Virus record (IMG/VR): IMGVR_UViG_3300028833_003520
Source of the DNA: a virus
Taxonomy: Duplodnaviria > Caudoviricetes
Reading direction: 5' to 3' (one strand)
DNA: 64,000 nt
The stretch's first letter is position 1, and the number at the start of each line of letters is the position of its first letter. Position numbers and translations under genes: made by a program. Below, piece by piece: positions 4,651 to 57,607 of the stretch. The notes below the pieces were generated by a model. The model saw only the letters and a program-made list of their open reading frames with translations. It ran no database searches and was not told the origin of the DNA.

Positions 4651-6387
4651 TTATATTCTGATAAGACCATTTATTGTCTGTCTCTGAAGGGGTACACAGA
4701 CCTTATCTTGGTCAGGTCCGTGATAACCTGGATTCATCCAATCCTTCAGGTCATAAACGAGGATTAAAGGCTCAGGTTTGAGCATTTTATCACCTGTCCT
4801 TATAGCCTTTGTCCTGCCAGGACAAATCCAACCGCAATCGGTTGTCTCAATTACTGCAAGAAGGTCAGTGATAAATGTGTTTTTACCTTGAAGCGAGCCG
4901 TTAGGCGAGTTCTTCTTAAACCACGCCTTATATCCATCGTAAAGGAATGCAAACGGCAGGACATCCCATACACAGCAAGGTAAGAATTCGTCAACGAATT
5001 GCTTGATAGGGTCGTTGAACATTTTGTAATCGTCCAATGCCGTGACGCATACATCAGGTTCAGAAAGTTCGTAATAGTTCATATTGAGAACTTTCCACAA
5101 AACATATTCGAGAACTTCTGTTCTACCAAGATAGTCATCTTTGATGTATCTTCTTTCGTGACCTGTGAAACACTTGTCAAAGGGCACGAATAATTGTCTT
5201 CTGTAGAATGAGTCGGATTTATCTTTAATTCGAGGCATCTCGTTGATACACTGAACCATAAATCCGTAGAACTGATAGGCGATAGGTGTCTTAAATTTTC
5301 TGTTCAACTGAATGACATCATTCGTGATGATGGCTTTCAGATTGGCAGCCTTGTCGATAAATTCACCGACGTTATTCTCGTCAACGATAATAGCGGTAGC
5401 CTGAAGCAGAGGTTCGAGCATAAAGTCTTTGCTGAAATCCGACAGAGGAATTGAAGCATAACTTTCTTTTCCACAAAGTTGTCTCATCAATTCGCAGAGC
5501 GTACCCTTACCGTTGTTACCTTTGTTGGAATAGAACCAAGCACTCTTGTTCCAACTAACGTGCGGTCTGATAATAGCACCTAAGATTTCCCAAAGGAGAT
5601 TTACGACCTGAGGGTTATCAGACAGTTCGTTCATCCAAGACTCGACATCCCAATCCGTATTATCAATAGGATTGTGGATAACAATGTTCGTGGCGTTAGG
5701 ATTGTAGTTGACACGAGATTTAGCGATGAAAACATACTTTGGGTCAAAATCATAGAGTTGTTTATCGGCATAATTAAAGATGCCGTTATTGACCGCAATC
5801 AAGTCTCTATCGGTGCATCTGACTTTTCTCTCTGCAAGGTCTTTCATTGCCATCTTAACTTCACTTATACCTTTAGAAGTGATGTTGTACTTAAATTGCC
5901 GAATGAGTTCGTTGAAGACATTATCTTTAGTTACATAGATACCCTTGTCGTGACCTTTATCTTGATAGATAGCAAGAAGGTCATACTCAACATCAGCGTT
6001 GGCTCCTGCACAAGCGATACGACAAATAGGGTACATAAACAGCAAAATATCCGCTATCTGCGATTCAGACAGGGAAGAGGGAAGTTGCCATTTTTCGCCT
6101 TTTTCAGCGTTAGCGTTATGTGCCTGGAAACAATCTATTGTAAGACGCAGTAAATCCTGTTGGATTTCTGACGGTGTTTTGCTTTTGTTGAAGAGGTTGC
6201 TCTCAAGATAATGTTTAGTGATGAGTTTCATATAGTCGTCTTTGGAACACAGTTCTGCAGAATTGGATAAATCAGCAAGAACTCTTGTATATTCAAGACC
6301 ATATGTAGCATCAGCATCAACGGTAGTGGCAGTATCAGTTTCAGATTCTAAAATTTCATCAGATACGATATTCTCGTCCTTAGGCAT
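4651..6387 (-). CDS. phage/plasmid D5/P4-type primase-associated SF3 helicase
   Basis: D5_N-like DLIAVNNGIFN; Walker A GNNGKGT; Walker B IIVDE; motif C CINEMP; FYRR arginine finger. Confidence 0.88.
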   Translation of the reverse strand: MPKDENIVSDEILESETDTATTVDADATYGLEYTRVLADLSNSAELCSKDDYMKLITKHYLESNLFNKSKTPSEIQQDLLRLTIDCFQAHNANAEKGEKWQLPSSLSESQIADILLFMYPICRIACAGANADVEYDLLAIYQDKGHDKGIYVTKDNVFNELIRQFKYNITSKGISEVKMAMKDLAERKVRCTDRDLIAVNNGIFNYADKQLYDFDPKYVFIAKSRVNYNPNATNIVIHNPIDNTDWDVESWMNELSDNPQVVNLLWEILGAIIRPHVSWNKSAWFYSNKGNNGKGTLCELMRQLCGKESYASIPLSDFSKDFMLEPLLQATAIIVDENNVGEFIDKAANLKAIITNDVIQLNRKFKTPIAYQFYGFMVQCINEMPRIKDKSDSFYRRQLFVPFDKCFTGHERRYIKDDYLGRTEVLEYVLWKVLNMNYYELSEPDVCVTALDDYKMFNDPIKQFVDEFLPCCVWDVLPFAFLYDGYKAWFKKNSPNGSLQGKNTFITDLLAVIETTDCGWICPGRTKAIRTGDKMLKPEPLILVYDLKDWMNPGYHGPDQDKVCVPLQRQTINGLIRI

Positions 6388-8721: not shown

Positions 8722-9762
8722 TCATTTTAGTTTAATCGTTTTGATATTAGGGTTGTCGAATATCTTATTATTCACTTCCCTCATAACAGCCGTAGTAAGT
8801 GACCTGACACCTGTGCCTTCGTCGAAAGCAGCATTAGCGACTTGTTCGATATATGCGTCGGTGGCAGTAATTTTAATGCCGAATTCTGAGCCGATACGGA
8901 TAAGAGGGGAGTAGGTTTGATTACGCATAATATTAGCGAAATCATTTGCATCAAATTCGTCAATGAAGATAATATCTTCGATACGACCTCTGAGTTCAGG
9001 CGGAAGAATTTTGTTAACCTCGTCTAATGTGGGAACTTTAGCATTCTTTCGGTGTGTTATATCACAATTGGAAAATCCAATACCACTTATACTCGATTGT
9101 GCGTATTGGGCAAAAGAACCTGCAAAGATACAAACAACATCAGTACAGTCTATGGTTTCAATAGTACCATTTTTAGTAGGTCGATAAGGAAAACTCATAC
9201 CCTCAATCATTCGATAAAGTTCAGGCAAAGCAGATGCATTATGTGTATCTTGGAAGTTATTAGTAAGATATTTGTCAAACTCGTCTATTACTAATATAGG
9301 AACCATATTAGGATAATCTTGACTCTTATTTTTAAGAATATAGAGGTTGGCTTGAATATTGTTTTCTCCTGTGTAACTGGAGTTGATACAATTTGCACCG
9401 TCAATGATTTGCATACAAGGGTATATCTTCTCAAGAATACGGAGAAGTTCGGTTTTTCCGCAGCCAGATTGACCTACGGTAAGTAAAGCACCTTTAGGAC
9501 GATATCCGTTAAGGATTCGCCATAAAAAGATGCTGATAGTCTTTTTATAAGTTTCGTTACCGTATAATTGAGCATCAAGGACATCATAAATTTGTTTTGG
9601 TGTCCAGGAAGCGGAAATCTGTGGAATGGGTGTAACAGATTTACGTGCCGAAGTTTTCTTCGATGAGGTTCGGTAGAACGAATCGCCGAGAACTTTGTAC
9701 GGCGTTTTATCTTTCAAAATACTGCTCTTATAAAAAGACACCTGAACCGAAGGTTCTGCCAT
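8722..9762 (-). CDS. ClpX/HslU-like AAA+ ATPase (no Zn-binding domain)
   Basis: Walker A GQSGCGKT; Walker B VIDEFDK; IFAGSF; SGIGF (IGF loop); PELRGRI; GTGVRSL sensor 2. Confidence 0.8.
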   Translation of the reverse strand: MAEPSVQVSFYKSSILKDKTPYKVLGDSFYRTSSKKTSARKSVTPIPQISASWTPKQIYDVLDAQLYGNETYKKTISIFLWRILNGYRPKGALLTVGQSGCGKTELLRILEKIYPCMQIIDGANCINSSYTGENNIQANLYILKNKSQDYPNMVPILVIDEFDKYLTNNFQDTHNASALPELYRMIEGMSFPYRPTKNGTIETIDCTDVVCIFAGSFAQYAQSSISGIGFSNCDITHRKNAKVPTLDEVNKILPPELRGRIEDIIFIDEFDANDFANIMRNQTYSPLIRIGSEFGIKITATDAYIEQVANAAFDEGTGVRSLTTAVMREVNNKIFDNPNIKTIKLK

Positions 9763-9989: not shown

Positions 9990-11063
9990 TGTTATCATCG
10001 TAATGTAACTTATGCAAAAGGCATTTTACTCCTTAAGAAAGAAAAGGGCAGGGATGTGTGTTACCCCGTCCTTTTCTTTTTGTTAGGCGTGTATTCCAAT
10101 TTTTCCATCGAATGATATAATAGGAGAATCAAAGTCCAAGTTACCTCGCAAGACATTGATAAAAGTGGTATGTTTATTCTTACCAAGTTAGGTTATGAGA
10201 TAGAAGAGTCAAGTCAGCCGCTTGGCTCTTTTATTTTATCAAAGACTGTGGTAGATTAGTTGTTATAGTAGTAGTTTAACTGACGGTAAATATGGACTAC
10301 TTACTGGTTTCCTTTCTATGCAAAGAGCAGTCCGAAGAGGGCTGTTCTTTTAAGTTAGAAGGTGATACAATAGCAATGTAATTAGTTATGCTAACTAACT
10401 TTTTACAATTCAGATACAGATGTATTCTTCATCGAGCATTAAGGACAGAAGGCACTCTGTCCTTTTTGTTTGGTGTATGCTATAATCGGTTCAAGGCTTA
10501 TGATATTAACTCATTCGCCACCTTTCAAAAAAGATGCAAAGAGGACGGTTATTTACCGCCCTTTTTGTTTAGAAGATGTCATTTATTTGATAGAATTGAT
10601 GTTATAATGAATGTATAATTAGAGTAGTCAGGAAAGCCATAAGACTATCTCTTTGGGATTTTGCAGTAAGGGTGGGTATATCCCACCTTTATTGTTTATG
10701 ATATAATCAGTCTGTTGCCATTGCCATTGGTGACGAGAATAAACTTGAGGCACACATATGACGCAAGATAGGCAGAGGTTTTCCTCTGCTTATTTCGTTT
10801 TTACAGATTTGTCCAGGATAAGAAGTAACGCAATTGTAATGCACAAGTGTTATAGTTGTGCTATAATACGATTACTGATTATCTATTCACGACCTTAGGT
10901 ATTTCAGTTTTCAAGATTCGAGATAAAGCAGTCATTAGCAGTCCTTGTGGCTGCTTTTTCTTTTTGGTATAATGATTGTAGAAAGGTGATTACATCATCT
11001 TTTTGTTTCTCATTAACGGCAGGGAAGGACAGGAGCAACATCGCCTGTCCTTTTCTTCGTTTT
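9990..11063 (+). ncRNA. tandem array of nine predicted small RNA transcription units
   Basis: Extended -10 TGnTAnnnT (mostly TGnTATAAT) at 9990, 10113, 10261, 10363, 10478, 10600, 10699, 10859 and 10965; each followed by a unique 40-85 nt body and a GC stem plus U-tract terminator; no credible ORFs. Confidence 0.7.
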
Positions 11064-11173: not shown

Positions 11174-11377
11174 GGGAAGAATCGGGGACAAAGTAGGGAA
11201 TAGGTGGGGACAAATCGGGGACATTTCAGGGACAATGTGAAGATAGGTGGCTTGAATGTGATTGATTAACATCTCAATGTGAATATCAAAGGCTATTATG
11301 TGAAGAAATGTGATTGAAGCAGCAGATTGATGTGAAGATTTGAGCATCAAATGTGATTAAATAGACGACTGATGTGA
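11174..11377. repeat. helically phased short repeats (centromere/iteron-like)
   Basis: GGGA at 11174, 11185, 11196, 11207, 11218, 11229 (11-bp period); ATGTGA at 11235, 11256, 11277, 11298 and 11308, 11330, 11351, 11372 (21-22-bp period). Confidence 0.75.
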
Positions 11378-11930
11378 ATTTCACGCAGTTTTACACAGAA
11401 AAACTGGTTAAAATTTAGTGATAGGTGCTTTTCTGAGAGGTTATCTCTAAAAAAGTCGCCTATTTTTTCGTGATAACGGTTTGCGAATGGAAATATTCCA
11501 AAAGGAATAATATTATTCTTATAGGAATATTTTTATGACTGACAGGAATATCGTTATTCCTAATAGCATATCCGAACGGCATATTTCGAAGCGTAATTTC
11601 GTCCCAATGTTTTACAGGGAAGGGGATGAGAGTGCTCGTATTGGTATCAGGCGGCGGAATTTTGAAAATTCTCGGCGAGTTTTTGAAATCAGAGAGGTTG
11701 TTTTCGAAATTTACCTCAAAATTTGCACCGAAATTTTTCATAATGAGAAGTGGTTCGGACAGCAAATTATGTATAGAAATGTATGGGCAAAATATGTTTT
11801 ATGTAGATTAAACAGAGTTTTGCAGCGTAATTTTACATCAGAAAGAGGAGCCAAAAAGTGTGTCACGCTCTTGAGCGACTCCAAAAATGTTAAGTTTAAT
11901 GTAGATTAAACCCTTGTTTTTGAGAAAATT

Positions 11931-12291
11931 TTCTATACATTCTATACGTTTCTATACCCCTTTTCTATACATTCTATACACAAGAATCCTTAAATTTAGG
12001 GCTTTATAGCCATTTGTATAGATTGTATAGAAAATATTTAAGTCAATTATAGAGCCTTTTTATTTTTTCGTGTAGCACACTTCCCATTTTTCTCAGTGTA
12101 AATCAAAAGACAATTTTTAAGATAATAAATGACTTGTAAAAATTCTATACTTTCTATACAAAGTACCGCAAACCCTTATAAAATAAGGCTTTGAGGCGTA
12201 TAGAAATGAAATAGCGTTTCTATACATTCTATACACGAACCTCTGAAACGCCTATGAAATAAGGGTTTTGGGCGTATAGAATTTTCTATAC
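11931..12291. repeat. TTCTATAC iteron cluster, candidate replication origin
   Basis: TTCTATAC at 11931, 11940, 11950, 11963, 11972, 12143, 12152, 12218, 12227, 12284; inverted GTATAGAA at 12025, 12198, 12274; bracketing CCTT-A/T-rich-AGG palindromes. Confidence 0.7.
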
Positions 12292-12364
12292 ACGCTTTTA
12301 GCAGGTATTTTCCAGTGTAAAATACCGCAGTTTGATAAGATTCAAATTTTTTTGTGTAATACTA

Positions 12365-14541: not shown

Positions 14542-14718
14542 ATGAGTCTTGATAAAGCAATACAACACGGTAAGGAGCATAGAAAGCCATACAGACGTGC
14601 TAAGTCTGTTGATAGTCAGTGCAGAAATCACGGTTCTTGTCTTTGGTGTAAAGGCAATAGAACTTATAGGTTTAGGAAAGAAGAAGAGAGGTTAAATCAA
14701 AATGTTGAAGAAGAATGA
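14542..14718 (+). CDS. small Cys/His phage-type protein
   Basis: MSLDKAIQHGKEHRKPY...CRNHGSCLWC; GAGGA RBS. Confidence 0.65.
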   Translation: MSLDKAIQHGKEHRKPYRRAKSVDSQCRNHGSCLWCKGNRTYRFRKEEERLNQNVEEE

Positions 14719-16504
14719 TACTTCGTTGTTTGAGTTAGGCAAGGGTTATGACATCTTTCCTGATAGATGTGCAACATCATCAGTAGATGCTACGTCTATC
14801 GTTGGTCACGTTCTTTTTAGCCAGCCTAAAAAGTGCGATAAGATAGACGCAAAATTTGCAAAGACGATTTCGAAGAAAATAGGTTCAAAGAACCTTAATC
14901 CTGTATTTGCACCTGATGCAATTCCGTATAAGTATAGTAAAGACGGCTACAAGACCGTAGGTGATGTAGTTAGAGAAGATTGGCAGGTAAGATATGGAGC
15001 GTTGCCGACAGGTGCTTTTATCGTAGATACAGAACCGTCGCATAATCTTATCATCAATACTTCTGCAGGAATTGCTGACCACTCTATCTTAAAATCTTAT
15101 GTTGATATGTTTGCTCGTAGTAGAAACAATAACAACATAGTTATTTATGACCGTAAAGGTGAGGCACTTCACTTTTATGGTAAGGAGTTAGAAAAGTACG
15201 GATATGATATCCGAATAATAGATACTATCGGTGCAAGGCGTGATGATGGAACAAGAGTATTTGGTACAGATAAGACTTGCATCACATATAATCCTTTGGC
15301 TTTAGCCGTTAAGTATGCTATTAGAGCAAGGAACGATACACGTTCCGATTGGTGGACAAAGGTTGCTATTGTTGTTAATGACGCTGTTGCTGACTTGATG
15401 TGTCGTTACCCAGAGGGTGGCGACCCATTTCATCCGACTGCGGCATACTATTTGGTCTTAGGACTCATATACGCTTTGATATGGAATGCATTGGAAGACC
15501 TGGCGAACGAGCCTATGGTCAGCAATTATGTTAATCCGTTAACGGATAGTAAATGCGTAGAGATTTTTGAGAGAGTTAATCTTGCGAATGTCTATGACAT
15601 TCTTGTCAAGATAAGAGAGGGTGATTTCAATGGTTTGAACAAACTTGGAATCAAGGTAACTGACGAGGACGATATTTATTCTTTGTTTGAGAATACAATA
15701 TCGAGAATATATGAGAGACCTTATATTGACGAGAAGGGCGAGGAGTATGATTTTAATTCCTCTATACGTCAGTTACTTAAGTATTCGTGGGATATTGCCA
15801 GAGTTTCGTTATGTAGTAACGATATATTCTTTGCAATAAATGAGTTAGCACCGATTGCCGAGATGAGGTTTACCTTAACAGGCATTCGTGGTTCTAATGT
15901 CTTCGATACCGAAGAGTTTGTGGCAGATAATGGTGCAAAGAAACAGATTATTTTCTTTGTCTATGGTGGTTATCAGACCAACTATAGTAGGTATTTTAGG
16001 ACATTTATTCATCAGGTGCTTAACAAAGTGTATGCATCTGTAGCAACTCCGAGAGAGCCAATTAAGGTCAAGGGCACACGTTTTGTCATAGACGACCTTT
16101 CTATGATAATAGATGCACAGCAAGAAGGACATTGGGACAATGCGTTGGACCCCTTGCTTGCTGTTGGGCATCAGTATAATCAGTTATTCACAGTAGCCAC
16201 TTCATCAATAGATATGTTCAGAAGCGTATTTGGTCTGACAAAGGACAAGGATTTCGAGGAGTTTGAGAAGACTGCTCATATTGTGTTCATTAAGAGTGCT
16301 GATGATACTCTTATTGATTATTTTCTTGCACGAGAGAAGAAGTGCCATACTGTAATACCTGAAAGGTTTGGCTATAATGACCTTGCATTTATGGATAGAG
16401 GGTGCAGAGTAATACTGTGTCCTGATGGTACAGCCGTTTGGTGTAAGAACTTGTTTCCTTATACGACACGGTTCAATAACGTAATTTTTTTGACAGTCTT
16501 ATGA
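14702..16504 (+). CDS. degenerate soluble paralogue of the VirD4-like coupling protein
   Basis: Collinear motifs with 21203..25579 (GAFIVDT, YDRKGE, YNPL, GGDP, TRFVIDDL, IVFIKSADD, YNDLAF); no Walker A GK; no TM. Confidence 0.75.
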   Translation: MLKKNDTSLFELGKGYDIFPDRCATSSVDATSIVGHVLFSQPKKCDKIDAKFAKTISKKIGSKNLNPVFAPDAIPYKYSKDGYKTVGDVVREDWQVRYGALPTGAFIVDTEPSHNLIINTSAGIADHSILKSYVDMFARSRNNNNIVIYDRKGEALHFYGKELEKYGYDIRIIDTIGARRDDGTRVFGTDKTCITYNPLALAVKYAIRARNDTRSDWWTKVAIVVNDAVADLMCRYPEGGDPFHPTAAYYLVLGLIYALIWNALEDLANEPMVSNYVNPLTDSKCVEIFERVNLANVYDILVKIREGDFNGLNKLGIKVTDEDDIYSLFENTISRIYERPYIDEKGEEYDFNSSIRQLLKYSWDIARVSLCSNDIFFAINELAPIAEMRFTLTGIRGSNVFDTEEFVADNGAKKQIIFFVYGGYQTNYSRYFRTFIHQVLNKVYASVATPREPIKVKGTRFVIDDLSMIIDAQQEGHWDNALDPLLAVGHQYNQLFTVATSSIDMFRSVFGLTKDKDFEEFEKTAHIVFIKSADDTLIDYFLAREKKCHTVIPERFGYNDLAFMDRGCRVILCPDGTAVWCKNLFPYTTRFNNVIFLTVL

Positions 16505-25579: not shown

Positions 25580-25653
25580 GTGTCCATCATAATTCTTCTT
25601 TTCTTGAGACAGGTTCAGTTTCGGCTGAGCCTGTTTCTACTTTTTAGAGCAAG

Positions 25654-25772: not shown

Positions 25773-25812
25773 TTCTTTGCCACATCTATTTCTGTAAAAA
25801 GTGCAAAATAGA

Positions 25813-25878
25813 CTAATATGCAAGATATTGCTTGTTAAGGGTGATTTTATCGTCTAATATGCAAGATATTGCATATTA
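25813..25878. promoter_or_regulatory. duplicated palindromic operator TAATATGCAA-n4-TTGCATATTA
   Basis: CTAATATGCAAGATATTGC at 25813 and 25854; second copy is a full inverted repeat. Confidence 0.6.
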
Positions 25879-26089: not shown

Positions 26090-26118
26090 TTGACAATCTC
26101 CATATATGGCGTTATACT
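26090..26118 (+). promoter_or_regulatory. CCATATATGG promoter (copy 2), upstream of the RNAP operon
   Basis: TTGACA-atctCCATATATGGcgt-TATACT. Confidence 0.85.
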
Positions 26119-26185: not shown

Positions 26186-26812
26186 ATGGCTAAGGAACTT
26201 AAAAAGCAGTCTGGTTCTAAAGAACAGTCTGTGAGCCGTGAGACGAAGAAAGCCCTTGAAAAGCAGGCAGCATTAGTCGAGAAGCAGGCAAAAGACCGTG
26301 AAAAGCAGGTTGCTAAAGAGAAGGCAAAGGGTGTTGGTAAGGCAGGTATTGGTGTACTCAAGATTGCCACAGGTAACCCTATTCTTGCTATAGGCGGTGT
26401 TGCAAATCTCGCAAATGGTGCAGGTAAGACTGCGAAGGCTGAGAAGAATGTCGAGAAGAAGAATGATAAGGCTCTTGCAAAGCAGGAGAAGAAACTTCAG
26501 AAGGCACTCGATAAGGACCTTCAGGGTAAGACTGAAGCAGAGAAGGCTGCAATCAAGGCTGATTTTGAGGCAGAATCTCAGAAGGTTAAGGAAACTCATA
26601 ATCTTGAGCAGTCCACAAATCTCCAGACAACAACTGTTGCTGATATTAAGGCTCAGGAGAAGACGGTCAAGGCGAAGGAAAAGGCTAAAGCCGAGGTTGA
26701 TAAAGCAGAGAAGCGTGACACTCGTGTCAAGAAGGCAGAGAATAAACTCAATGTCAAGCAGATTGAAGCCAATGCTCAGGCACAGGCACAGTCTGACGGT
26801 TACGGTTACTAA
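26186..26812 (+). CDS. Lys/Ala-rich protein with Gly-rich hydrophobic hairpin
   Basis: AAAGGAG RBS before ATG 26186; GVGKAGIGVLKIATGNPILAIGGVANL; architecture like 51515..52189. Confidence 0.75.
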   Translation: MAKELKKQSGSKEQSVSRETKKALEKQAALVEKQAKDREKQVAKEKAKGVGKAGIGVLKIATGNPILAIGGVANLANGAGKTAKAEKNVEKKNDKALAKQEKKLQKALDKDLQGKTEAEKAAIKADFEAESQKVKETHNLEQSTNLQTTTVADIKAQEKTVKAKEKAKAEVDKAEKRDTRVKKAENKLNVKQIEANAQAQAQSDGYGY

Positions 26813-26887: not shown

Positions 26888-29800
26888 ATGGCTTATAGCG
26901 TTGCTTATAAAGATTGGTTATTTAACTGCGGTAATCGTAGTGAATATATCATCTATCGTGCAATAGAAGAATTCAGTAGGCAGAGAGAAGAACGGGGCGA
27001 TAGACCCGTTTCTCTTAGTGAGGGAGTCGCTTTGCGTCAGCAGATTCTTAAGAATCTTGAAAGCAATCCCGAAATCAATAGTTATGTTTCTGATGCATAC
27101 GATATAGGTTTGAAGTCACTTTCAAACCGTATTCAGATGAATCCTATCTTGATGTCAATTCAAGCAGAGGGTTCATTTGCGAAGATTTTCGGTGGAAAGT
27201 CTTATGAGAATGTATCGAAGGAACAGTTAGATAGCATTATCGTGACACAGGAAAACAAAGCAAAAGATAGACGAGAATCTTTTATTGAGTCTATCAATGA
27301 GGTTTTGCCTGGCATCGAACTTAATGAAGAAAAGTTCAATAACTTAATTACGACTTATACGAATGCGGTAGTAAGTGTTAGGAACAATGGTTCATATTCT
27401 TATGAGCCTGCGGTGCCTTTGTCACCGTATTGTCCTGCATTTACGACTCGTAGTTTTACTTATAAAAATCCTGCGTTGTCTTTGATGAAGAAGTCAGATA
27501 AGCAAACAGCAGATGGCAATTATGCCGATTTTGTACGCATTTATCATCCGACAAGAGATGATATCGAGGACCAGTACGACGATTTCATTCGTTTCTATAA
27601 GGCGGAGTATGCAACTTTTGGTGAGAATACTAAAGGTCGTGGCGATAGTGCCAAGACCAATATTATTAAGACCGATGTTCCTACTTTCTACACGAATGAA
27701 GATGATTTCTATCTGAATGGTTTGAGAAAATACTTGACAGAAGAAGATGCAGCGAAGGTTATTAAGCATTGTAATCGTTTCGTAGATAGAACAGGCACAC
27801 CTTATAAGCGTGCCAATATGAAGAAAAGTATGGAATTGCTCCAGCGTATCGCTGAGGCTGGTTACGACTATACTATAGTACCGAAAGCAGGCGGTCAGGT
27901 TGATTGCCGTGTTTCCGTGTTGGGTTCTAATTACGATATAAGTATGATACCTCAACCAAACCAGTCCTTTGCGTATAACTTCGGTAGAGTATTTTGTCGT
28001 GAGAGTGGTGTTTCCTATAACCTGAATACACAGAATAAGTCTCCTGAAAAGGGTTACAAATACGAACCCTACGAAGCAAGTGTAACAGATGCTATGAATC
28101 TGTTGAAGTTTGCTATGGGAGAACCTGTTACTGTTGATACAAAGAATAATGTACCTTTAGGTAAGCACCGTTTGATTTCGTTCAACACTCCGAAGGGAAC
28201 AGTATATCGTAATAACGCATATTATAATAAGGGTAATGAGCAGATAAAGAACTTTACTGCTTACTATGGTCGTTCTTCTGACGGTGTAAACGTATTCTTG
28301 AAGGCTAATACTTCTGAGGTTACACCGAAGACGGCTCGTTTTGGTAGGAAAGGCGTTTCAAAGGAAGAAGACGCTGAACTTCATCTTAAAGAGTGGATTG
28401 AGTCTGCAAGACAGACATACACTGACGAGATGGATTTGGAGAATCTTATTCGTGAAGCAAGAGACCATCAGAATGACCCTGATTATGAGTTTAGATTCTC
28501 AGGTGTACCTGAAATCTATGCTATGCAGAAGAATTACTGGAATGTTCTCACAGGCAAAGAGCACGCTCTTGCTAAAGTAGGTCAAGATGACGATGAGTTT
28601 GATGAAGTTGGTGTTGAGAGAGCATATTATGAAGGCTCTCCTGAAGACAAAGTGCGTCAGCATTTTGCAGATTCCATTCATCACGATATCGGCACTTTTG
28701 AGCCTGATGCAAATGGTAAGAGGTATAGCATATATGGTCTTACCAATTATGCTGTAACTGACTTTAACTCAACTCGTTTCAGATTATCTGTTGTAGCAGC
28801 AACTAATCTGTTAGGCTTTAAGCCTGATGAGTTACAAGATACAGATGCTCAAGGCGATAGCGTAAAGAATATGCTTATCCGTTATGATGAAAAGACGGCA
28901 CAGCCTATTTTCCATCACGAGAGCAAATTCGTTCGTAATATGGGTTCCGTTATTAAGGACACTCTTCAGCAGAGTGGTATCGTAATTGAGGATGACGATA
29001 TTACGATTGACGATAACGGTATCGTGCAGTACAAGGGTAAAAAGGTCATTAACGGAGAATTCCGTCGTGACCCGAAGGCTAAGCGATATGGCACAGTTAG
29101 TATCGAAGATGGCTTGGATAAGCCTGAAGAAGTTGTAGGTCATATCGGTCAGATTTTTGCTCCTGAAGGCAAGTACAACACAGTTACAACGAAGTTTGCA
29201 GGCACAAAGAACTATATGTTCGTGCCTGGATATACAGCGAAGATATTGCCACAGAAAGATGGCGAGAATTTGCCTTATGAGGCAAGAACTCGTCTGTTGG
29301 GTTATGAGCAGTTGATGAGTCAGCGAATCAGGTCTCAGTTGCGTAGTGACCTCTTTATGACCATAGATAACTATGATGGTGCAGCATTAGGTATGAACAC
29401 ATCTCTGAATAAGGTTTATACGAACCTTTATGATGTGCGTCATCCTGTGGACTATATCGAGCGTTCAAGGGAAGAGGGAATGGATGACAGTTTCCTTGAG
29501 GCTGTTCTTGCTACAGAGGCACGCAGAGTCAGATATGATAGTGTCTATAAAGAACAGGCGACACTTAATGCTTATTATCAGGCATATACTCATAAGAGTA
29601 CGCTTATTGATGATAGAAATGTCAACCCTCTCACTCTGACAGGCTTTAGAAATATGGCTATTATGACAGAGGAAGGCGATGGGTATTTTGACCCTGATGC
29701 TACTTCCACTGGTATGAACCAAGGTGTTACAAGATACCTTGTCGAGAGTGCAGAAGTATTACCTGACGGTAGTATCAAGCGTGGCGACTTGGATGATAAG

Positions 29801-32800
29801 ACACCTCTGTGTAAGCATCCAGTTATGCATTGGGCAGATTACGTTCCGTTTGACCGTCGCCAGATGGTCTTCAACAACGCAATTAAGGCTCAGTGCATTA
29901 CAGGAAAGGTAAAGACTGCACAGATGACCTTTGGTGGTTGGAACTTTGACGATGGTTTCATCGTTACAAAGCAGTTTGCCGAGACATATAAGGTGCGTAA
30001 TAAAGATGACGTTCTTCGAGATATCGTTGTCGGAGATAAGATTCTCGATAAGAACGGTAACAAGGGTGTTATCTCACTTGTTATCGACCCTGATATGTCT
30101 ATGGAAGAAGCCCGTGAGCAGGGACTTGAAAATGTTCTTGCGATGGTAAAGGCAAACCCTGATATTCAGGTTTATGGTGCTCCATATCCTGCAGTATCTC
30201 GTTTTAACGGTGGTACAGCAAGAGAACTTATGGAGAATCCCTCAGATTTGCATATGCCAGACGGTACTATCAAAGAAGGATGTGTCGGCGAAGCCGAATT
30301 CATCGTTACACATATGGCTGTTGACAAGAAGTCACAGATTTATGACGACCAAGCCTTCGAAGAAGGTAAGGGTAGTAGAGCCTCTGCACAACTTGCTTGG
30401 GCATTGAATGCGAGAGGTGCGGAAGCAATGATGAGAGAGTTCTATTCTGATAATGATAGAGCCTTCACGACAATGCGTGAGTATTTCATCACTTGCGGCT
30501 ATGACTTATCCGAGACAGGTCAGATTATGCGTGGTTATACACCACACCCTGGCGAGGTAAGGAATGTCTTTGCTATGGAAGAAATCGAGAATATGCCGAA
30601 AGAGGGTTTAACTCAGTCGGCTATTCGTTCCAAGGTCTTCGATATGACAAGACAGATTCGTCATTCGGGTGGTTTTATGGAACTTCCGTTCCCGTTGACT
30701 TTCCCGAACGGTACTACTATTCCTCAAGTTCAGATTGAACACGATGTGATAACTGAAGCCGACAAGACTGACGTAAATTACACGAAGGATAGTTGGACAG
30801 TTAACCGTAATGGCAAGGAAATCACATATCATCGTAATCGGGAACTTTTGGATAACGGTGGCTCCAAGTTGGTTGATAGGAAGATTTCTGATGCAAAGAA
30901 GCCTATTTATGCATTGCCTGTAATGAGTTCTCATTTGAGAGTTGACCAGCCTTATCAGGATGGTACAACGATGCTTAACGATTGTACTGAATTCTATCAG
31001 TACATTTACAGAGCAGGTTTGACATATCTTGAAGCAGAGCGTAAAGGTGACAAAGCAGCAATGACAAAGGCTCGTAATGATGCTCAGCGTTTCTTTGATA
31101 GAATCACAGGTGATATTGTCGAGAATAGATTTGAAGACAATAAGCATAACTATTTCAAAGAAGGTTTGATGAGCAACAGAATGCCGAAGTCTTCTAACCC
31201 TGTTTGGACTGCTGACCCTCGACTTGATATTGAGGAAGTCGGTGTTTCGCCAGAAATGGCAGAAAGACTCGAACTTGAAGAGGGTGAAACAGTCTTAACA
31301 TTCCGTAACCCTGTTCTGCGTCCTGAAGGTGTTAGTGCAAAGAAAGTCAAAATCCTTAAGGGTATTGTAGGTATTGCAATTAACCCTGTAATGGATAAGG
31401 GTTATGATGGTGACTTCGATGGTGATACAGTACCTTTGAAGAAATTGCTCACACCTGAAGCAAAGGAAGAGGCTGAAAGACTTTACTCTGTAAAGGCAAC
31501 ACTTTTGGACTATGGTTCAAAAGACGAGGATGGCAACTATGGTCTCTTAATGAATCACGGTCTTGATTTGAAGACTGCTGAATATAATCGTCCTGAACTC
31601 AAAGACCAGTACGATGAGATTACGAAGCGTGTTAATGGATTTGAGAAGGATTATGCAAGCGGAAAACTTTCTTATGAGGAAGTTGATAAGATGCGTGAGC
31701 AGGCTGTTAAGGATTTGAACGATTATGTTCATAAGTGCTTTGAAGGCGGTGTTGGTGAAGCCATTATCAGTTACAAGGATATTTCGTCACACGTTGCTTC
31801 GTGTGAGGAGATTGTTAAATCGGGAGCAAAGGGAAGTTACAGTAAACTTGATGACTATTGTAACTATCTTGGAGCGTCCTACGAATATAATGTGGATGAG
31901 AATGGCGAGAAGACCTCTATTAACCTCGATACTGTTGAAGATTTGGAGACACCTTTTGGTGGCGATAAGGAATCTGCAAGACAGGCATCTATGGCTACGC
32001 AGTATGCAACATCTGTTAAGACGATGGTTGGTGTCGCAGGTAAATCTTCACAGCGTGGTATGAAAGCACTCCGTAACGCTTGCCCTCAAGCCGTTTTGGA
32101 GATGACATACCCTGTTACGCAGGGACTTCTGCAGGCAAAACACGACCCTGTTGACGCAAGGCAGAAGTACGCTACGGTTATGGACTCTGTAAGGTCGCTC
32201 TGGAAGGGTTATAAACTGAATTTAGTTCAGGTTGATATGCTTGACGAAAATGGTCATAAACTCTATGACGAAAACGGTGATACCCGTAAGACAGAGATTT
32301 ATGTCAAGGAGTATGACGATAATCATCAGCCTGTAAGAGCAACAAAAGAAGAGTTTATGGAACAGATGAAAGCCATTTATAGCCGTAAGGATATGCTTAA
32401 TGTTGCTATAAACGATGACTACGTTAAAGAGGTTGCTGATAATCTCGTTGGTTCTGATGGACTTATGAGGAGTGTCGAAGACCCCGATGTAGGAAGTCCT
32501 ATGGACAGACTTGCATATAAGAACGCAGATGTTCGTGCTATCGACCTTCTTGACGATATGGCAAAGAAGGGTGAGAGTATCTTTGATGGTAAGTACAATC
32601 TCGGATTTGCTCCGAGAGCAGTAATGCGTAACATCAATAGAGAGTATCACAATATCAATGCTCGACCTGGCGAGCAGATTAGGGAACTTGATATTATTGC
32701 AAAGAAGGACACTCTGGATAAGAAGGGTACTTCGAAGCCTGTTTATAATCAGGAAGATGTAGAGTTCCGTAAGTCAAAAATCGCCGAATTCGTGGCAGCG

Positions 32801-33298
32801 AAGAGGAAGGTCAGAGAGTTGAACCTCGCATCTAACGGTAAGTATGTCATTTCTGTTGTTCCGACAGAGGACGGTATTGAATCTGAAGATGGTATGAGAG
32901 GCTCTGAAGGTGTTAAAACGGTGAAGGATGTCAATTCTTTTATCGGTAAACACGCAAGGGACGGTGCCGTTACTTTCGAAGATGAGGGAACGACTTTCGC
33001 ATTTACACCAACGAATATCCGTTTGGTTGAGAAAGACGAACCTTATGAGACGAGGGATGGCAAACAAGCCGTTACACCTGCTAATTCTGTAGTAGTTACC
33101 TATGGTAACCCCGACTCTGATTACAGTTACGAGTATCGTTTTACTGTAAAAACAAGAGACGGACAGATTGTAAAGCCGAATATGGCACAGGTAAAGATGG
33201 CGATGAATTCGGAAGATACTCCTCCTGTCAACGGTAGGCGAACAATTGAGACTCCTGACGAGACTCCTAATAAGGATGTTGAGGGTAAAATTCCTTGA
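26888..33298 (+). CDS. single-chain two-barrel DNA-dependent RNA polymerase (fused beta/beta'-like; NCgl1702/YonO-like mobile-element type)
   Basis: beta-like GMNQGVTRYL, GGWNFDDGFIV, GDKILDKNGNKGVIS; beta'-like FRNPVL, catalytic DGDFDGD (nt 31406-31426), KSGAKGS. Confidence 0.9.
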   Translation: MAYSVAYKDWLFNCGNRSEYIIYRAIEEFSRQREERGDRPVSLSEGVALRQQILKNLESNPEINSYVSDAYDIGLKSLSNRIQMNPILMSIQAEGSFAKIFGGKSYENVSKEQLDSIIVTQENKAKDRRESFIESINEVLPGIELNEEKFNNLITTYTNAVVSVRNNGSYSYEPAVPLSPYCPAFTTRSFTYKNPALSLMKKSDKQTADGNYADFVRIYHPTRDDIEDQYDDFIRFYKAEYATFGENTKGRGDSAKTNIIKTDVPTFYTNEDDFYLNGLRKYLTEEDAAKVIKHCNRFVDRTGTPYKRANMKKSMELLQRIAEAGYDYTIVPKAGGQVDCRVSVLGSNYDISMIPQPNQSFAYNFGRVFCRESGVSYNLNTQNKSPEKGYKYEPYEASVTDAMNLLKFAMGEPVTVDTKNNVPLGKHRLISFNTPKGTVYRNNAYYNKGNEQIKNFTAYYGRSSDGVNVFLKANTSEVTPKTARFGRKGVSKEEDAELHLKEWIESARQTYTDEMDLENLIREARDHQNDPDYEFRFSGVPEIYAMQKNYWNVLTGKEHALAKVGQDDDEFDEVGVERAYYEGSPEDKVRQHFADSIHHDIGTFEPDANGKRYSIYGLTNYAVTDFNSTRFRLSVVAATNLLGFKPDELQDTDAQGDSVKNMLIRYDEKTAQPIFHHESKFVRNMGSVIKDTLQQSGIVIEDDDITIDDNGIVQYKGKKVINGEFRRDPKAKRYGTVSIEDGLDKPEEVVGHIGQIFAPEGKYNTVTTKFAGTKNYMFVPGYTAKILPQKDGENLPYEARTRLLGYEQLMSQRIRSQLRSDLFMTIDNYDGAALGMNTSLNKVYTNLYDVRHPVDYIERSREEGMDDSFLEAVLATEARRVRYDSVYKEQATLNAYYQAYTHKSTLIDDRNVNPLTLTGFRNMAIMTEEGDGYFDPDATSTGMNQGVTRYLVESAEVLPDGSIKRGDLDDKTPLCKHPVMHWADYVPFDRRQMVFNNAIKAQCITGKVKTAQMTFGGWNFDDGFIVTKQFAETYKVRNKDDVLRDIVVGDKILDKNGNKGVISLVIDPDMSMEEAREQGLENVLAMVKANPDIQVYGAPYPAVSRFNGGTARELMENPSDLHMPDGTIKEGCVGEAEFIVTHMAVDKKSQIYDDQAFEEGKGSRASAQLAWALNARGAEAMMREFYSDNDRAFTTMREYFITCGYDLSETGQIMRGYTPHPGEVRNVFAMEEIENMPKEGLTQSAIRSKVFDMTRQIRHSGGFMELPFPLTFPNGTTIPQVQIEHDVITEADKTDVNYTKDSWTVNRNGKEITYHRNRELLDNGGSKLVDRKISDAKKPIYALPVMSSHLRVDQPYQDGTTMLNDCTEFYQYIYRAGLTYLEAERKGDKAAMTKARNDAQRFFDRITGDIVENRFEDNKHNYFKEGLMSNRMPKSSNPVWTADPRLDIEEVGVSPEMAERLELEEGETVLTFRNPVLRPEGVSAKKVKILKGIVGIAINPVMDKGYDGDFDGDTVPLKKLLTPEAKEEAERLYSVKATLLDYGSKDEDGNYGLLMNHGLDLKTAEYNRPELKDQYDEITKRVNGFEKDYASGKLSYEEVDKMREQAVKDLNDYVHKCFEGGVGEAIISYKDISSHVASCEEIVKSGAKGSYSKLDDYCNYLGASYEYNVDENGEKTSINLDTVEDLETPFGGDKESARQASMATQYATSVKTMVGVAGKSSQRGMKALRNACPQAVLEMTYPVTQGLLQAKHDPVDARQKYATVMDSVRSLWKGYKLNLVQVDMLDENGHKLYDENGDTRKTEIYVKEYDDNHQPVRATKEEFMEQMKAIYSRKDMLNVAINDDYVKEVADNLVGSDGLMRSVEDPDVGSPMDRLAYKNADVRAIDLLDDMAKKGESIFDGKYNLGFAPRAVMRNINREYHNINARPGEQIRELDIIAKKDTLDKKGTSKPVYNQEDVEFRKSKIAEFVAAKRKVRELNLASNGKYVISVVPTEDGIESEDGMRGSEGVKTVKDVNSFIGKHARDGAVTFEDEGTTFAFTPTNIRLVEKDEPYETRDGKQAVTPANSVVVTYGNPDSDYSYEYRFTVKTRDGQIVKPNMAQVKMAMNSEDTPPVNGRRTIETPDETPNKDVEGKIP

Positions 33299-39346: not shown

Positions 39347-39545
39347 CCTCGTTGGTCAGTTTTTACAAAATAAAAATCCGTATTCTGTATAGCAGGTACG
39401 GATTTTTATTTGGAGTTTGACTTTCATTTTATATTAGTATATACTTGTTTATGAGCAGATTTTGCATTTATCTAATCATATCCACCACACGATTATCCAG
39501 GGGTTTTACAGGGGAATATGTAGAACAAAGGAGAAGACAAAGGAT

Positions 39546-39875
39546 ATGGCAAACAAGAAGAAGGTTAACCCTAAAAAGCCTTCCACAAAGGTAACGAACG
39601 GGAAAGTAACTCGTAAGATGCTCCTCAAAGAAATGGCTCGTCGAAGTGGAGCAGACAGCGAGACGACAATGGCGGTTTTCACATCAATGATAGATGTCAT
39701 TGTTGAAAATGTACGGGACGGTTCGACTGTAAGTATTACAGGATTAGGAAATTTCTATCTTCAGAAGCACAAGGGACATCCTGTGCAGTTTGAGTCCAGT
39801 ACAAACCACGTTGAGGACTATAATGTACTTAAGTTCTCGGCTTCGGATGCTTTGAATAAGAGATTAAGAGAGTAA
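39546..39875 (+). CDS. HU/IHF-like DNA-binding protein
   Basis: VSITGLGNFYL...VLKFSASDALNKRL; basic N-terminal extension. Confidence 0.8.
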   Translation: MANKKKVNPKKPSTKVTNGKVTRKMLLKEMARRSGADSETTMAVFTSMIDVIVENVRDGSTVSITGLGNFYLQKHKGHPVQFESSTNHVEDYNVLKFSASDALNKRLRE

Positions 39876-41839: not shown

Positions 41840-42475
41840 ATGAGTGAATTTGATTTTTCTGTGGATATTTTGGACTTCGATAATGATGGTTTTTACAAGC
41901 CTTCAAAAATTGAAGATTGTAAATTCGATGAAGTTATTCCATTTCGTAAAGCACACGGCGAGAGTTTTCTCCCGATGGATGTTGAACGTATCAATGCGTC
42001 AATCGTTAAAGAGTGCGATAAATTAGTAAAAGTGTATGAAACTAAGGTTTCTTATAACGAAGCAACTCGTGACTGGTTAATTGATGTTAAGGATTATATG
42101 AATGGTCGTGATTTCAATGATGATAGTGTCGAAAATAGTTATAAGAGTGACATCATTGAAAGAGGTTTTACTCCCGAAAATATAGACGAGCATATTGATA
42201 AAGCAAAGCAAGATATAGAAGACGGTAAGCAGACTGTTAAGGATGCTGAAAAGGACTTCTATGAAAGAGTATGGAAGACTGAGGGTGAACTATGTGCAGC
42301 ATCAGGACATAATCTTGATAAAGCGACTTTCGAGTATCTTGGTAGTTCATACGAAGAGTTTAGGGTAAAGAAACTGAAAGACCATCAGGCGAAGATGGAA
42401 TCTCGAATGAAAAGAGCAGATAATCTCACTTCTAATATCGTCAAGGAGACTGAAGATGATAAACAGAAGGAGTGA
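41840..42475 (+). CDS. hypothetical protein, tail ESRMKRADNL...DDKQKE
   Basis: AGGAG RBS; 211 aa. Confidence 0.7.
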   Translation: MSEFDFSVDILDFDNDGFYKPSKIEDCKFDEVIPFRKAHGESFLPMDVERINASIVKECDKLVKVYETKVSYNEATRDWLIDVKDYMNGRDFNDDSVENSYKSDIIERGFTPENIDEHIDKAKQDIEDGKQTVKDAEKDFYERVWKTEGELCAASGHNLDKATFEYLGSSYEEFRVKKLKDHQAKMESRMKRADNLTSNIVKETEDDKQKE

Positions 42476-42480
42476 CGATT

Positions 42481-43158
42481 ATGAGTCAAACAAACAGTTT
42501 TTTATCCCAAAACCGCCCTGCTCGTGGTGAAATTTTTTATGTTGTTCCTCAGGGTGAGGAAGTTAAGTTAGGAGAATTTGTCGGTGGCAGACCTGCTATT
42601 ATCGTTTCAAACGATATGAATAACGAGTTCAACGGTGTTGTTGAAGTAGTTTATATGACGAGGGAAGGTCATCATAAGAATGATTTGCCAACAGATGTAA
42701 AAATTCTCTCTACTGGACAGGCTTCGATAGCACTCTGTAATCAGATTTACACGGTTCATAAGAAGCGTATTGGTAAATATGTAGGACAGTGTACTATTTC
42801 TGAAATGAAAGCCATTGACAAAGCACTATCTGTCGGACTTTGTATGGACACAATTTTCAATCAGAAGAATATTGTCGAGACTCTTGATGAGTGGAAGAAA
42901 CGAGTGCGTCTGGAACCTGATGCAGATGAGATTGAAAACATTCCGTATGTTGAGCCGACTGAAGAAGAATTAGCGAAGGCTAAAGAAGCGAAAGAAAGAG
43001 CGAAAGTCCAGACAGTTCAGGCAAAAGAATCGGTTAAAAATAATGAAGCCGAGAATTCTGAAGCCATTATTAAATTGACGACAGAGCGAGATTTGTATAA
43101 GCAAATGTATCAAGAACTGTTAGCCAAGTGCGTTAAGGCTGGCGTGGATATCAGTTAA
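42481..43158 (+). CDS. PemK/MazF-like endoribonuclease domain with coiled-coil extension
   Basis: RGEIFYV...GGRPAIIVSNDMNN...VVEVVYMT...ALCNQIYTVHKKRIGKYVG...EMKAIDKALSVGL. Confidence 0.85.
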   Translation: MSQTNSFLSQNRPARGEIFYVVPQGEEVKLGEFVGGRPAIIVSNDMNNEFNGVVEVVYMTREGHHKNDLPTDVKILSTGQASIALCNQIYTVHKKRIGKYVGQCTISEMKAIDKALSVGLCMDTIFNQKNIVETLDEWKKRVRLEPDADEIENIPYVEPTEEELAKAKEAKERAKVQTVQAKESVKNNEAENSEAIIKLTTERDLYKQMYQELLAKCVKAGVDIS

Positions 43159-55777: not shown

Positions 55778-56464
55778 TCAATTAACATTACAGTATATTA
55801 TATCTGGCTTTTTATCACCTACACCATCTGCACTACTGTTTATCACGCTAATAGGAACACAAGTCTGAGCATAGGCAGGCAACTCCTATACTTCTTGCGT
55901 TGAGCCGAGGCTCCATAGCCTATGAGGGATTGATACCCCCAGCCGTCACCCACTTGGACGAATCCAAGCAAAACCATTCAGAAGAAGTAGGGATATTTCA
56001 TATTCCTAAAAAATCGTCATCTTCTTCCGCCTTGGGCTACAGACAAGTGTGGCTTGCGTTATAGTCACCATTACAGTGACATCACGGCGAATCATCTTGG
56101 GGTGCATTCCCAACAGAGCATCCTCATTTGCGGTGAGGTGGGTAGTAATTAGACGAGTCTAATACTACGCTTATTGGGTTATTCTCCCACAGGGAGCGTC
56201 TATTGCGATGACCACAAGCCCACTTACGCTAACATCATACAGGTGTGTGCTATGTCCCGTGAAACGAATATTGTTATACCGCTTGAACGATGGTCACCCA
56301 AGAATCGACAGTTCCAAATGGAAACCCAAATGGAAGAGCGACGTTCAAATTGCCCACAAGAGAAGTATCCTTCTCTATCAGGCTTTTTCGGTGGGACGTA
56401 CCTCAGCAGGGTGGTTAACCCTTCGTGCACTGAGTTACATATAACACACTGTAATGTCAATTCA
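55778..56464 (-). ncRNA. large (~690 nt) structured ncRNA, ROOL-like candidate
   Basis: 5' and 3' ends form a ~24-bp helix whose three mismatches are G-U only on the minus strand; many internal hairpins; raised GC; no credible ORF; own terminator. The family name is a guess from size and context. Confidence 0.7.
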
Positions 56465-56602: not shown

Positions 56603-57607
56603 TTACTGTATTCTTCCGTTAGATGCTTTAACAAGCAGGGGATAAGCAATCTTCATTACTTCGACCATCTGAGGATGAGGCTTGCCTGTAACACCGTGAC
56701 AACGAAGGTTTACGATATGCTGCCACTCACGTTCAGTAGCCGTGATGAAAATCTCGGTCTTGAGTGAGTTAGGCAGTACGCTACGAGCCTCTTGCGGTGT
56801 AGCACCTTTCTCAATGAGTTCGAAGTAAGCCTTTTCACAAGCCTTGCAAGCATTCTTCCAAATCTTGTATTCCTCGCTACTTGTATTCCAGTAGAAAGGT
56901 TCAATGACAGTGATTTCTTCACCGAACTGACCTTTTGTATAGTTGCAGTAGCGTGTGGATTCCTGACCGAAAGATGCAGGTCTGTGTCGCACGAATTCGT
57001 GAGAAACTCCTCTGTCACAAGTGAAAAGAACTGTGTGAACGATGAAATCGGAAGGTTCATCTCCAGAAATTGTGTTAGCAACTTCGTCACGAGGGACAAC
57101 TCTGACAAGAGGACTCTCGTTAAGTTCTTTCTCAATGATAGAGAAGGACATTACGTTATCTTCCTTACAAGTTTCGGTAATTGCAGGGAAGAGTTCAGGG
57201 TAAGCGGCGTGAAGAGCGTGCTGAATGCCGTGTCCGTCACCGACAACAATACCTGTATTAACGAAATCCATCCAAGTGCGGAATGAAGCCATAACGATGC
57301 CTGATACTTCGTCAAATTTCATATAGTTACGCATTGCGTAACGAGGATGCTGGTCAGCGTGTGCAGTCATTGTTGCCCAAATATCTTTCGCAAGATTCTT
57401 TCTGCGGTCGATATAGGCAAGATAGATGTCCTCGTGTTCGAGCATAGCACCGTGCTTGTGTGCAGCGAGACCTTTGACAAATCCGACGGCAGATTCGGGC
57501 GTAATCTTGTCTTCAGACTTGTAACAAGTGCGTCCGACCTTTTCGATAAAGGCATAGGGATGCACATTGTGTTCAATCAGTTGAGCATTAGGTTTGATAA
57601 TGTTCAT
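56603..57607 (-). CDS. thyX: flavin-dependent thymidylate synthase
   Basis: GRTCYKS; HGAMLEH; DRGVSHEFVRHRPASFGQESTRY (RHRx7S); EARSVLPN; HPQM. Confidence 0.93.
   Translation of the reverse strand: MNIIKPNAQLIEHNVHPYAFIEKVGRTCYKSEDKITPESAVGFVKGLAAHKHGAMLEHEDIYLAYIDRRKNLAKDIWATMTAHADQHPRYAMRNYMKFDEVSGIVMASFRTWMDFVNTGIVVGDGHGIQHALHAAYPELFPAITETCKEDNVMSFSIIEKELNESPLVRVVPRDEVANTISGDEPSDFIVHTVLFTCDRGVSHEFVRHRPASFGQESTRYCNYTKGQFGEEITVIEPFYWNTSSEEYKIWKNACKACEKAYFELIEKGATPQEARSVLPNSLKTEIFITATEREWQHIVNLRCHGVTGKPHPQMVEVMKIAYPLLVKASNGRIQ

Follow-up and report, generated by a model that had tools for sequence, protein, structure and literature searches.

The 64,000-nucleotide stretch of DNA studied here (the window; IMG/VR record IMGVR_UViG_3300028833_003520, filed under Caudoviricetes) encodes a giant RNA polymerase (RNAP; P0001, 2136 amino acids) in which β- and β'-type parts are joined in a single chain. 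Our results show that this RNAP is a fixed component of a transfer module, where it follows, in order, a Clp-like AAA+ ATPase, a coiled-coil protein and a giant VirD4 coupling protein, and precedes a protein of about 750 amino acids. The identity of the protein as a single-chain two-barrel RNAP is solid. By its residues it is catalytically intact, from which we infer polymerizing activity. The best-supported reading of sequence and structure models together is that of an active, σ-independent RNAP that belongs to the transfer module. New here, as far as the literature searched shows, are the fixed place of the enzyme in a transfer module found across phyla, and its C-terminal tag.

The gene begins with an ATG preceded by an AAGGGG ribosome-binding site. 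As the original prediction, made from the sequence of the window, had claimed, β-type motifs (GWNFDDG at residues 1017–1023 and GDK..GNKGV at 1049–1061) are followed in the same chain by β'-type motifs (RNPVL at 1473–1477, DGDFDGD at 1507–1513 and SGAKGS at 1645–1650). The β'-type barrel carries the DxDGD metal-binding triad and the β-type barrel the two conserved basic residues (K1051 and K1059) that mark the two-barrel RNAP superfamily. The three aspartates of DGDFDGD and both lysines of GDK..GNKG are invariant in 53 aligned homologues, as are R1473, P1475, T1744, Q1745, K1751 and H1752. The sole Pfam match of the protein is PF00623 (Rpb1 domain 2; 35.4 bits against a cut-off of 25.3), and a profile of the family matches β'/Rpb1 chains in the PDB with E values of 1e-12 to 1e-9. 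No sigma or alpha domain was found by a Pfam scan of about 50 open reading frames (ORFs) of the 64-kb window, in line with the earlier claim that neither gene is present.

The original prediction stood or fell with two double-psi barrels, and both are present in a confident structure model of the core. This AlphaFold (AF2) model covers residues 880–1950, was made with an alignment of 52 homologues and has a mean predicted local distance difference test score (pLDDT) of 87.8 and a predicted template modeling score (pTM) of 0.86. Foldseek puts bacterial β' chains on top (E about 1e-13). With VIA-align, a structure search independent of Foldseek for which the model numbering starts within the 880–1950 construct, model residues 329–1035 match the largest subunits Rpb1, archaeal A', vaccinia Rpo147 and that of Pol IV (Z 15.6–16.2, 350–520 residues). 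Model residues 1–308 match second-largest subunits, namely the β-like chains of phiKZ and AR9, plastid and Xanthomonas β, and Pol I A135 (Z 13.8–14.6, 151–257 residues). Hence, both barrels are present. Model residues 91–270 superimpose on the phiKZ/AR9 β-like chains and cellular β with a root-mean-square deviation of 2.3–3.2, and isolated double-psi barrel domains fit model residues 553–660 (Z 9–10). Among single-chain comparators, QDE-1 reaches a Z of 14.5, P74 gp62 11.1 and P23-45 gp96 11.0; further comparators are RDR2 (10.3) and crAss gp66 (7.3). A PolD-like DNA polymerase was rejected as the main reading, since PolD scores only Z 8.6 as against 16 for RNAP subunits, and since an invariant arginine aligns with the residue of β' that contacts the 2'-OH of the nucleoside triphosphate.

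In the models, the RNAP is the C-terminal half of β fused to an almost complete β', behind a family-specific module of 680 residues. Its β barrel, which is compact in the model, has no flap or sandwich-barrel hybrid motif (SBHM) insert; the GWNFDDG and GDK motifs are only about 25 residues apart. The TQx5KH helix-loop-helix has the spacing of a bacterial trigger loop and is predicted to be a trigger-loop-like element. The N-terminal part was modeled separately (residues 1–919, pLDDT 84.4). Of the roughly 900 N-terminal residues that had been left unassigned, residues 1–680 still match no known fold, whereas residues from about 680 to 920 can now be placed: residues 678–919 weakly match the N-terminal part of β (VIA-align, Z 5.2–6.0). 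Foldseek with the N-terminal 919 residues found nothing in the PDB at E ≤ 0.001, and a feature search of the ESM Atlas with residues 1–680 gave no usable match. A small α/β domain at residues 300–415 has weak VIA-align matches (Z up to 8). Because the domains were folded together and not singly, these searches do not prove a new fold in residues 1–680. Residues 170–900 are conserved across the family (25–31% identity, with invariant positions). Residues 1–680 are a real module, which might recognize promoters or templates or dock to the transfer machine.

In a search that covered 5.8 billion proteins, 481 of the scored candidates were relatives of the RNAP (E ≤ 0.001). Most of them are 1800–1950 amino acids long and 35–45% identical across residues 170–1915; the last 200 residues align in the nearest relatives only. 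Keeping one genome per species left 72 loci (synteny was counted over 74). They belong mostly to Actinomycetota (Streptomyces, Arthrobacter, Microbacterium, Kribbella, Nocardiopsis and others), and a few are Lachnospiraceae or metagenome-assembled genomes of Clostridia. The gene is found in plasmid records from Streptomyces, Rhodococcus fascians and Gordonia (pGKT2), among others, and there are weaker matches on Staphylococcus and Lactococcus plasmids. The nearest relative with a named source comes from a bovine rumen metagenome (L075); it is 59% identical, and its gene order and promoter are alike. Megablast of 24 kb around the RNAP gene found no match among plasmids and phages. By its described features, rather than by sequence comparison, the RNAP belongs to a family that was named earlier on bioinformatic grounds (NCgl1702-like). 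In the literature searched there is no biochemical characterization of any family member, and full-text searches turned up no publication that connects two-barrel RNAPs with coupling proteins, nor one on the RNAP tail.

The RNAP was originally noted as lying next to a conjugation-type coupling protein. Pfam supports the identity of this neighbor, and the link holds across two phyla. The coupling protein is directly upstream of the RNAP on the same strand in 70 of the 74 loci; the AAA+ ATPase is present in 50, the 763-residue coiled-coil protein in 65 and the 752-residue protein downstream in 58. Conversely, among metagenome loci seeded with the coupling protein, the RNAP is directly downstream in 48/58, and most of the loci without it have less than 3 kb of downstream sequence. 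The module is common to large plasmids and elements resembling integrative and conjugative elements in Clostridia and Actinomycetota.

The coupling protein has two transmembrane segments, a Walker A motif (TRAGKGQT) at about residue 486 and a conserved C-terminal domain. Between the low-GC Clostridia-type element and high-GC Streptomyces/Arthrobacter it is about 58% identical over 1200 residues, as against 36% for the RNAP. This conservation, much stronger than that of its neighbors, suggests that the protein either spread across phyla recently or is very strongly constrained. In the AAA+ ATPase of the module we did not find an IGF/IGL loop for docking to ClpP. Hence, the role of an unfoldase fits this protein better than that of a protease partner. 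Gordonia pGKT2 has the same gene order as the window, and this plasmid is reported to move from Gordonia into both Rhodococcus and Nocardia (Jung et al. 2011, cited in PMC5640721). The identification of the module as a conjugation system relies chiefly on pGKT2 and the coupling protein. The window also holds a 600-residue protein (14702–16504, plus strand) without a Pfam match. It is weakly similar to the VirD4-like CD1115 family (E 1.8e-6), tblastn aligns it with coupling-protein genes at other loci (22–26% identity), and it is probably a second, divergent VirD4-like protein.

Another distinctive aspect of the RNAP is its C-terminal tail. The motif R[RK][LMT]P occurs 19 to 22 residues from the end in at least eight ORFs of the window, where 0.25 would be expected from the internal rate. 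The tagged proteins lie between 33467 and 55331 on the plus strand, and most of them end in xGE. Eight are soluble proteins without a signal peptide that match no known family. Looser versions of the tag are found at 51515, 54122 and 36804. The RNAP itself has RRTIETP at residues 2117–2123, 20 residues from its end, as had been anticipated when its tail was described as containing RR. By itself this is a loose match to the tag; the canonical form, RR[LMTV]P, is found in the tails of orthologues. In the rumen orthologue GRRSIETPEE is kept and the end is GDMGEG. Across 121 members of the RNAP family, the strict motif lies at positions −32 to −15 in 21 (0.13 expected), and the tip ends in [LFYMI]G[DE] in 36. 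The tails have a mean charge of +2.4 followed by −3.6, compared to −1.0 and −0.7 in internal controls. Actinobacterial RNAPs have tips of the type D-Y-[EG]-[ML]-G. A small conserved protein encoded downstream of them has the tail TR[SN]IIE[ST]VDY...DLEL, which resembles RRTIETPDE of the RNAP; these tails count as one orthologous family, not as many independent cases.

The data from orthologues make the bipartite tail a trait of the RNAP family, and in Clostridia-type elements, to judge from the sequences, the RNAP tail is the tag of the unrelated soluble proteins. The shared basic-then-acidic tail, present and enriched, is a candidate signal of type IV secretion substrates. Co-folding of the coupling protein (residues 465–1200 and 1296–1458, 28-row alignment) with the last 60 residues of the RNAP scored 0.00 against a mark of 0.32, which weighs neither way.

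The RNAP gene shares its promoter type with six other operons of the window. A promoter of the form TTGACA/T, N4, CCATATATGG, N3, TATAcT occurs seven times on the plus strand of the window, compared to 0.04 expected copies (Table 1), and twice in the rumen relative. In five of the operons behind it the first product carries the C-terminal tag. The earlier claim that the RNAP lies downstream of a cargo promoter agrees with this, as its promoter class also heads the operons of tagged proteins. No second class of promoter was seen in the window. The CCATATATGG palindrome within the spacer resembles the operator of a single dimeric regulator. Given the form of the promoter, we expect it to be read by the σA RNAP of the host and to be governed by a common repressor or activator. 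In the 470-nt gap between the terminator of the coupling-protein operon and the RNAP promoter, CTAATATGCAAGATATTGC occurs twice, 42 nt apart (25812–25872, plus strand). The second copy runs on into a palindrome, and the repeated sequence may be a binding site for a regulator. Many TTCTATAC-type repeats, which are iteron-like or oriT-like, lie immediately ahead of the first transfer-operon promoter (11900–12300, plus strand).

Table 1. Coordinates of the RNAP, the transfer module and the promoters in the window (aa, amino acids)
Feature	Position	Strand	Basis or remarks
Two-ring Clp/Hsp100-type AAA+ ATPase, 606 aa	16922..18742	+	Two Walker modules; conserved module member
Coiled-coil protein, 763 aa	18812..21103	+	Conserved between AAA+ and coupling protein
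VirD4/TraG-type coupling protein, 1458 aa	21203..25579	+	PF02534 at 3.8e-20, PF12696, PF10412
Intrinsic-terminator-like hairpin	25606..25637	+	Closes the coupling-protein operon ahead of the RNAP operon
Promoter of the operon of small ORF and RNAP	26090..26118	+	TTGACA, 17-nt spacer with CCATATATGG, TATACT
Lys/Ala/Glu-rich protein, 208 aa, co-transcribed with RNAP	26186..26812	+	Conserved in the rumen relative; no family match
Giant single-chain β-β' RNAP gene (P0001, 2136 aa)	26888..33298	+	ORF call, translation, Pfam, model
RNAP N-terminal region, residues 1–680	26888..28927	+	Confident model; 170–680 conserved family-wide; matches no known fold
RNAP β-like part, residues ~680–1190	28925..30457	+	Weak match to N-terminal lobe of β, then β-type double-psi barrel at ~970–1150
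RNAP β'-like part, residues ~1208–1915	30509..32632	+	Clamp-like start, barrel at 1432–1540 (RNPVL, DGDFDGD), SGAKGS
RNAP bridge-helix-like helix	residues 1707–1724		Model and conservation
RNAP trigger-loop-like TQGLLQAKH	residues 1744–1752		Invariant TQx5KH, helix-loop-helix in model
RNAP variable C-terminal tail, residues 1916–2136	32633..33295	+	Alignable in closest relatives only; bipartite tag-like tip
Protein of no assigned family, 752 aa	34532..36790	+	Conserved downstream of RNAP
Promoter copies, transfer operon and RNAP operon	12365; 26090	+	
Promoter copies heading tagged-protein operons	33406, 43808, 44480, 49014, 52717	+	

The original prediction had compared the RNAP with YonO of the Bacillus prophage SPβ and with the virion RNAP of crAss phages. 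Our results do not support a special kinship with either; cellular subunits match best. The RNAP resembles cellular β and β' in the order of the two parts, the catalytic residues, the bridge helix and the trigger-loop-like element. It differs from them in being flapless, in the much reduced N-terminal half of its β part, in the low identity (10–23%) and in its extra 680-residue N-terminal module and tagged tail; no α, ω or σ partner is in evidence either. Fusions of the two subunits are known from Helicobacter, where β::β' is natural, and from Orf6 (Rpb2::Rpb1) of the yeast plasmid pGKL2 (PMC2919709).

Like YonO, the RNAP of the window is a single-chain two-barrel enzyme of a mobile element, without σ, α or flap, and YonO is a DNA-dependent RNAP. 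YonO is only about 100 kDa in size and lacks homology to the trigger loop and most domains of multisubunit RNAPs (PMC5467207). In contrast, the RNAP of the window has 2136 residues, of which more than 500 align to β'/Rpb1, it has the invariant TQx5KH between two long helices, and it lies in a transfer module instead of among late phage genes. No sequence similarity to YonO emerged from tblastn against phage records, and the RNAP has neither a prophage late-gene context nor a minimal core without a trigger loop. With NCgl1702-like proteins, the RNAP shares one chain, a β- and then a β'-type double-psi barrel, no SBHM or flap insert, and carriage by mobile elements of Gram-positive hosts, actinobacteria among them. 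PMC7824862 describes the joining of the two barrels in a single chain, with β first and without the SBHM insert, and the RNAP shows this feature. We found no earlier description of synteny with VirD4, of the 680-residue N-terminal module or of the C-terminal tag in this family.

What could an RNAP do in a transfer module? The likeliest model is that the RNAP is a substrate of the coupling protein that is unfolded by the AAA+ ATPase and, once inside the recipient, works on the incoming DNA. We regard this model as a real possibility that falls somewhat short of being probable. In it, where we infer the activity of the enzyme, its template, its translocation and its timing, host RNAP would make the enzyme in the donor from the σA-type promoter, under regulation that it shares with the transfer genes and with the operons of tagged proteins. 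The coupling protein would recognize the enzyme through its basic-then-acidic C-terminal tail, and the AAA+ ATPase would unfold it for passage into the recipient together with the DNA. In the recipient it would start RNA synthesis on the newly arrived element independently of host σ, to provide early transcripts or to prime the complementary strand. In its most far-reaching form, which we put forward only tentatively, a near-complete β-β' RNAP would be cargo of a conjugative coupling protein from Clostridia to Actinomycetota, unfolded by a dedicated Clp-like ATPase and injected with the DNA and about 10 tail-tagged soluble proteins, and would give σ-independent first transcription or priming. 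It would then be the plasmid counterpart of virion RNAPs.

There are precedents for such a delivery. The virion RNAPs of N4, phi14:2 (gp66, 6vr4) and P23-45 (gp96, 8h2m) enter the host with the DNA and transcribe it without host factors, as we propose for the RNAP of the window. The virion RNAP of N4 belongs to a fold class that is unrelated to two-barrel RNAPs. Both gp66 and gp96 are, like the RNAP of the window, two-barrel single chains, and gp96 is fused to the tape measure. They differ in that the proposed vehicle here is a conjugative coupling protein, and their structural similarity to the RNAP core is lower than that of the cellular subunits. Sog of R64 and TraC of RP4 are large nucleotide polymerases from transfer regions that are moved into recipients and act on incoming single-stranded DNA (PMC5512222). 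Transferred primases of this kind and virion RNAPs are the precedents for delivery (PMC5512222). Sog and TraC are Toprim primases of Gram-negative plasmids, whereas we describe a two-barrel RNAP of Gram-positive elements whose transfer is so far proposed by analogy.

Several observations weigh against delivery into the recipient. We did not detect a canonical VirB4 (AAA_10) in any of five complete relatives, and only one of the five has a relaxase match, which is weak. The machine as a whole is therefore divergent, and its nature is uncertain. The element encodes a D5-type primase-helicase (4651–6387, minus strand), so that the RNAP may be dispensable for priming. The operon promoters look like ordinary σA promoters; hence, bulk transcription has no obvious need of the RNAP. 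The tail of the RNAP in the window deviates from the tag, with RRTIETP in place of RR[LM]P and an end in GKIP and not xGE. In the 20-kb flanks of actinobacterial loci the strict tag is not clearly enriched (8 of about 1050 ORFs, compared to about 2.4 expected), so the tag may be lineage-specific. Finally, we found no paper in the literature that ties the RNAP tail to type IV secretion.

Some of these observations would be expected if the RNAP stayed in the cell that produces it and transcribed a subset of the element's genes from promoters of its own, in which case its position next to the coupling protein would reflect co-regulation. YonO is a proven phage transcriptase of this kind for the late genes of SPβ (PMC5467207). 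The RNAP gene sits in a regulon with a shared operator-like palindrome, its tail in the window departs from the canonical tag, and the 680-residue N-terminal module could be a built-in part for promoter recognition. However, all seven operon heads look σA-like, and there is no sign in the window of the other promoters that such an enzyme would read. Such a role also leaves unexplained why orthologues share a tag with unrelated soluble proteins, and why the coupling protein is a near-obligate neighbor across phyla. We therefore consider a purely resident transcriptase rather unlikely. One could also argue that the enzyme acts in the donor, where short RNAs made at or near oriT would prime the replacement strand or open the duplex for the relaxase. 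Its place in the transfer module is compatible with this, as is the ability of two-barrel enzymes, among them the structurally similar QDE-1 (Z 14.5), to use single-stranded templates. Yet the RNAP has kept the clamp, bridge helix and trigger-loop-like parts that are typical of processive transcription, and the element already has its D5-type primase-helicase, which makes a donor-side primase or R-loop maker improbable.

The shared tails themselves may have a meaning other than transfer. They could be degrons or assembly tags that are read by Clp-like ATPases of the element, with the RNAP as one regulated client. C-terminal tags are classic Clp degrons, and the window contains two Clp-type AAA+ genes, the one of the module and another at 8722..9762. 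We find this reading very improbable: the AAA+ ATPase of the module lacks the ClpP-docking loop, no protease gene was found nearby, and the tag occurs together with a VirD4-type ATPase in one regulon. The RNAP might also be the virion RNAP of an unrecognized phage or phage-plasmid. Two-barrel virion RNAPs exist (6vr4, 8h2m), and 26 IMG/VR contigs of 67–198 kb that carry the gene (L077–L102) are filed as viral, several of them with terminal repeats and rated complete. A full virion module, which the original prediction had named as the better explanation should it exist, was looked for and not found in the window or in the five complete relatives. In these relatives (111–198 kb, with terminal repeats) no HK97 capsid, TerL or portal was matched. 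None of the 19 proteins neighboring the RNAP has a PHROG structural match, and a tblastn search with P0001 found nothing among 50,697 phage records at 1e-5. Matches to the RNAP lie on plasmids, including pGKT2. The 26 contigs are probably plasmids filed as viruses, and a role as virion RNAP is hardly credible. The candidate readings are not fully exclusive.

The window has further features outside the transfer module. The gap between the plus-strand and minus-strand arms of genes holds a ROOL RNA of full length at 55787–56458 on the minus strand (Rfam RF03087; 198 bits, gathering threshold 99, E 4e-43). ThyX (56603–57607) is also encoded on the minus strand. On the plus strand are an HU-like DNA-binding protein (39462–39875) and a PemK/MazF toxin domain with a 100-residue extension (42472–43158). 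The region 9990–11063 (plus strand) consists of consecutive short units, each closed by a strong terminator hairpin, and has no credible ORF; a run of AATGTGA-type repeats lies further on, at 11240–11380.

To our knowledge, single-chain relatives of cellular RNAP are rare, and YonO is the only one that has been studied. The family described here keeps far more of the cellular enzyme and hence offers a compact model for β and β' without α, ω and σ. The RNAP is also a candidate source of rifampicin-insensitive transcription in mobile elements. If the tail is indeed a transfer signal, it would represent a new type of secretion signal and mark out a group of effector proteins. Gordonia pGKT2, which has the module and is reported to be transferable in the laboratory, is a tractable system. 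If the RNAP is transferred, then conjugation would join phage infection as a route by which DNA carries its own transcription machine into a new cell. Such a transfer could help to explain how the module, with a coupling protein that is still 58% identical between Clostridia and Streptomyces, has spread between phyla with different promoters.

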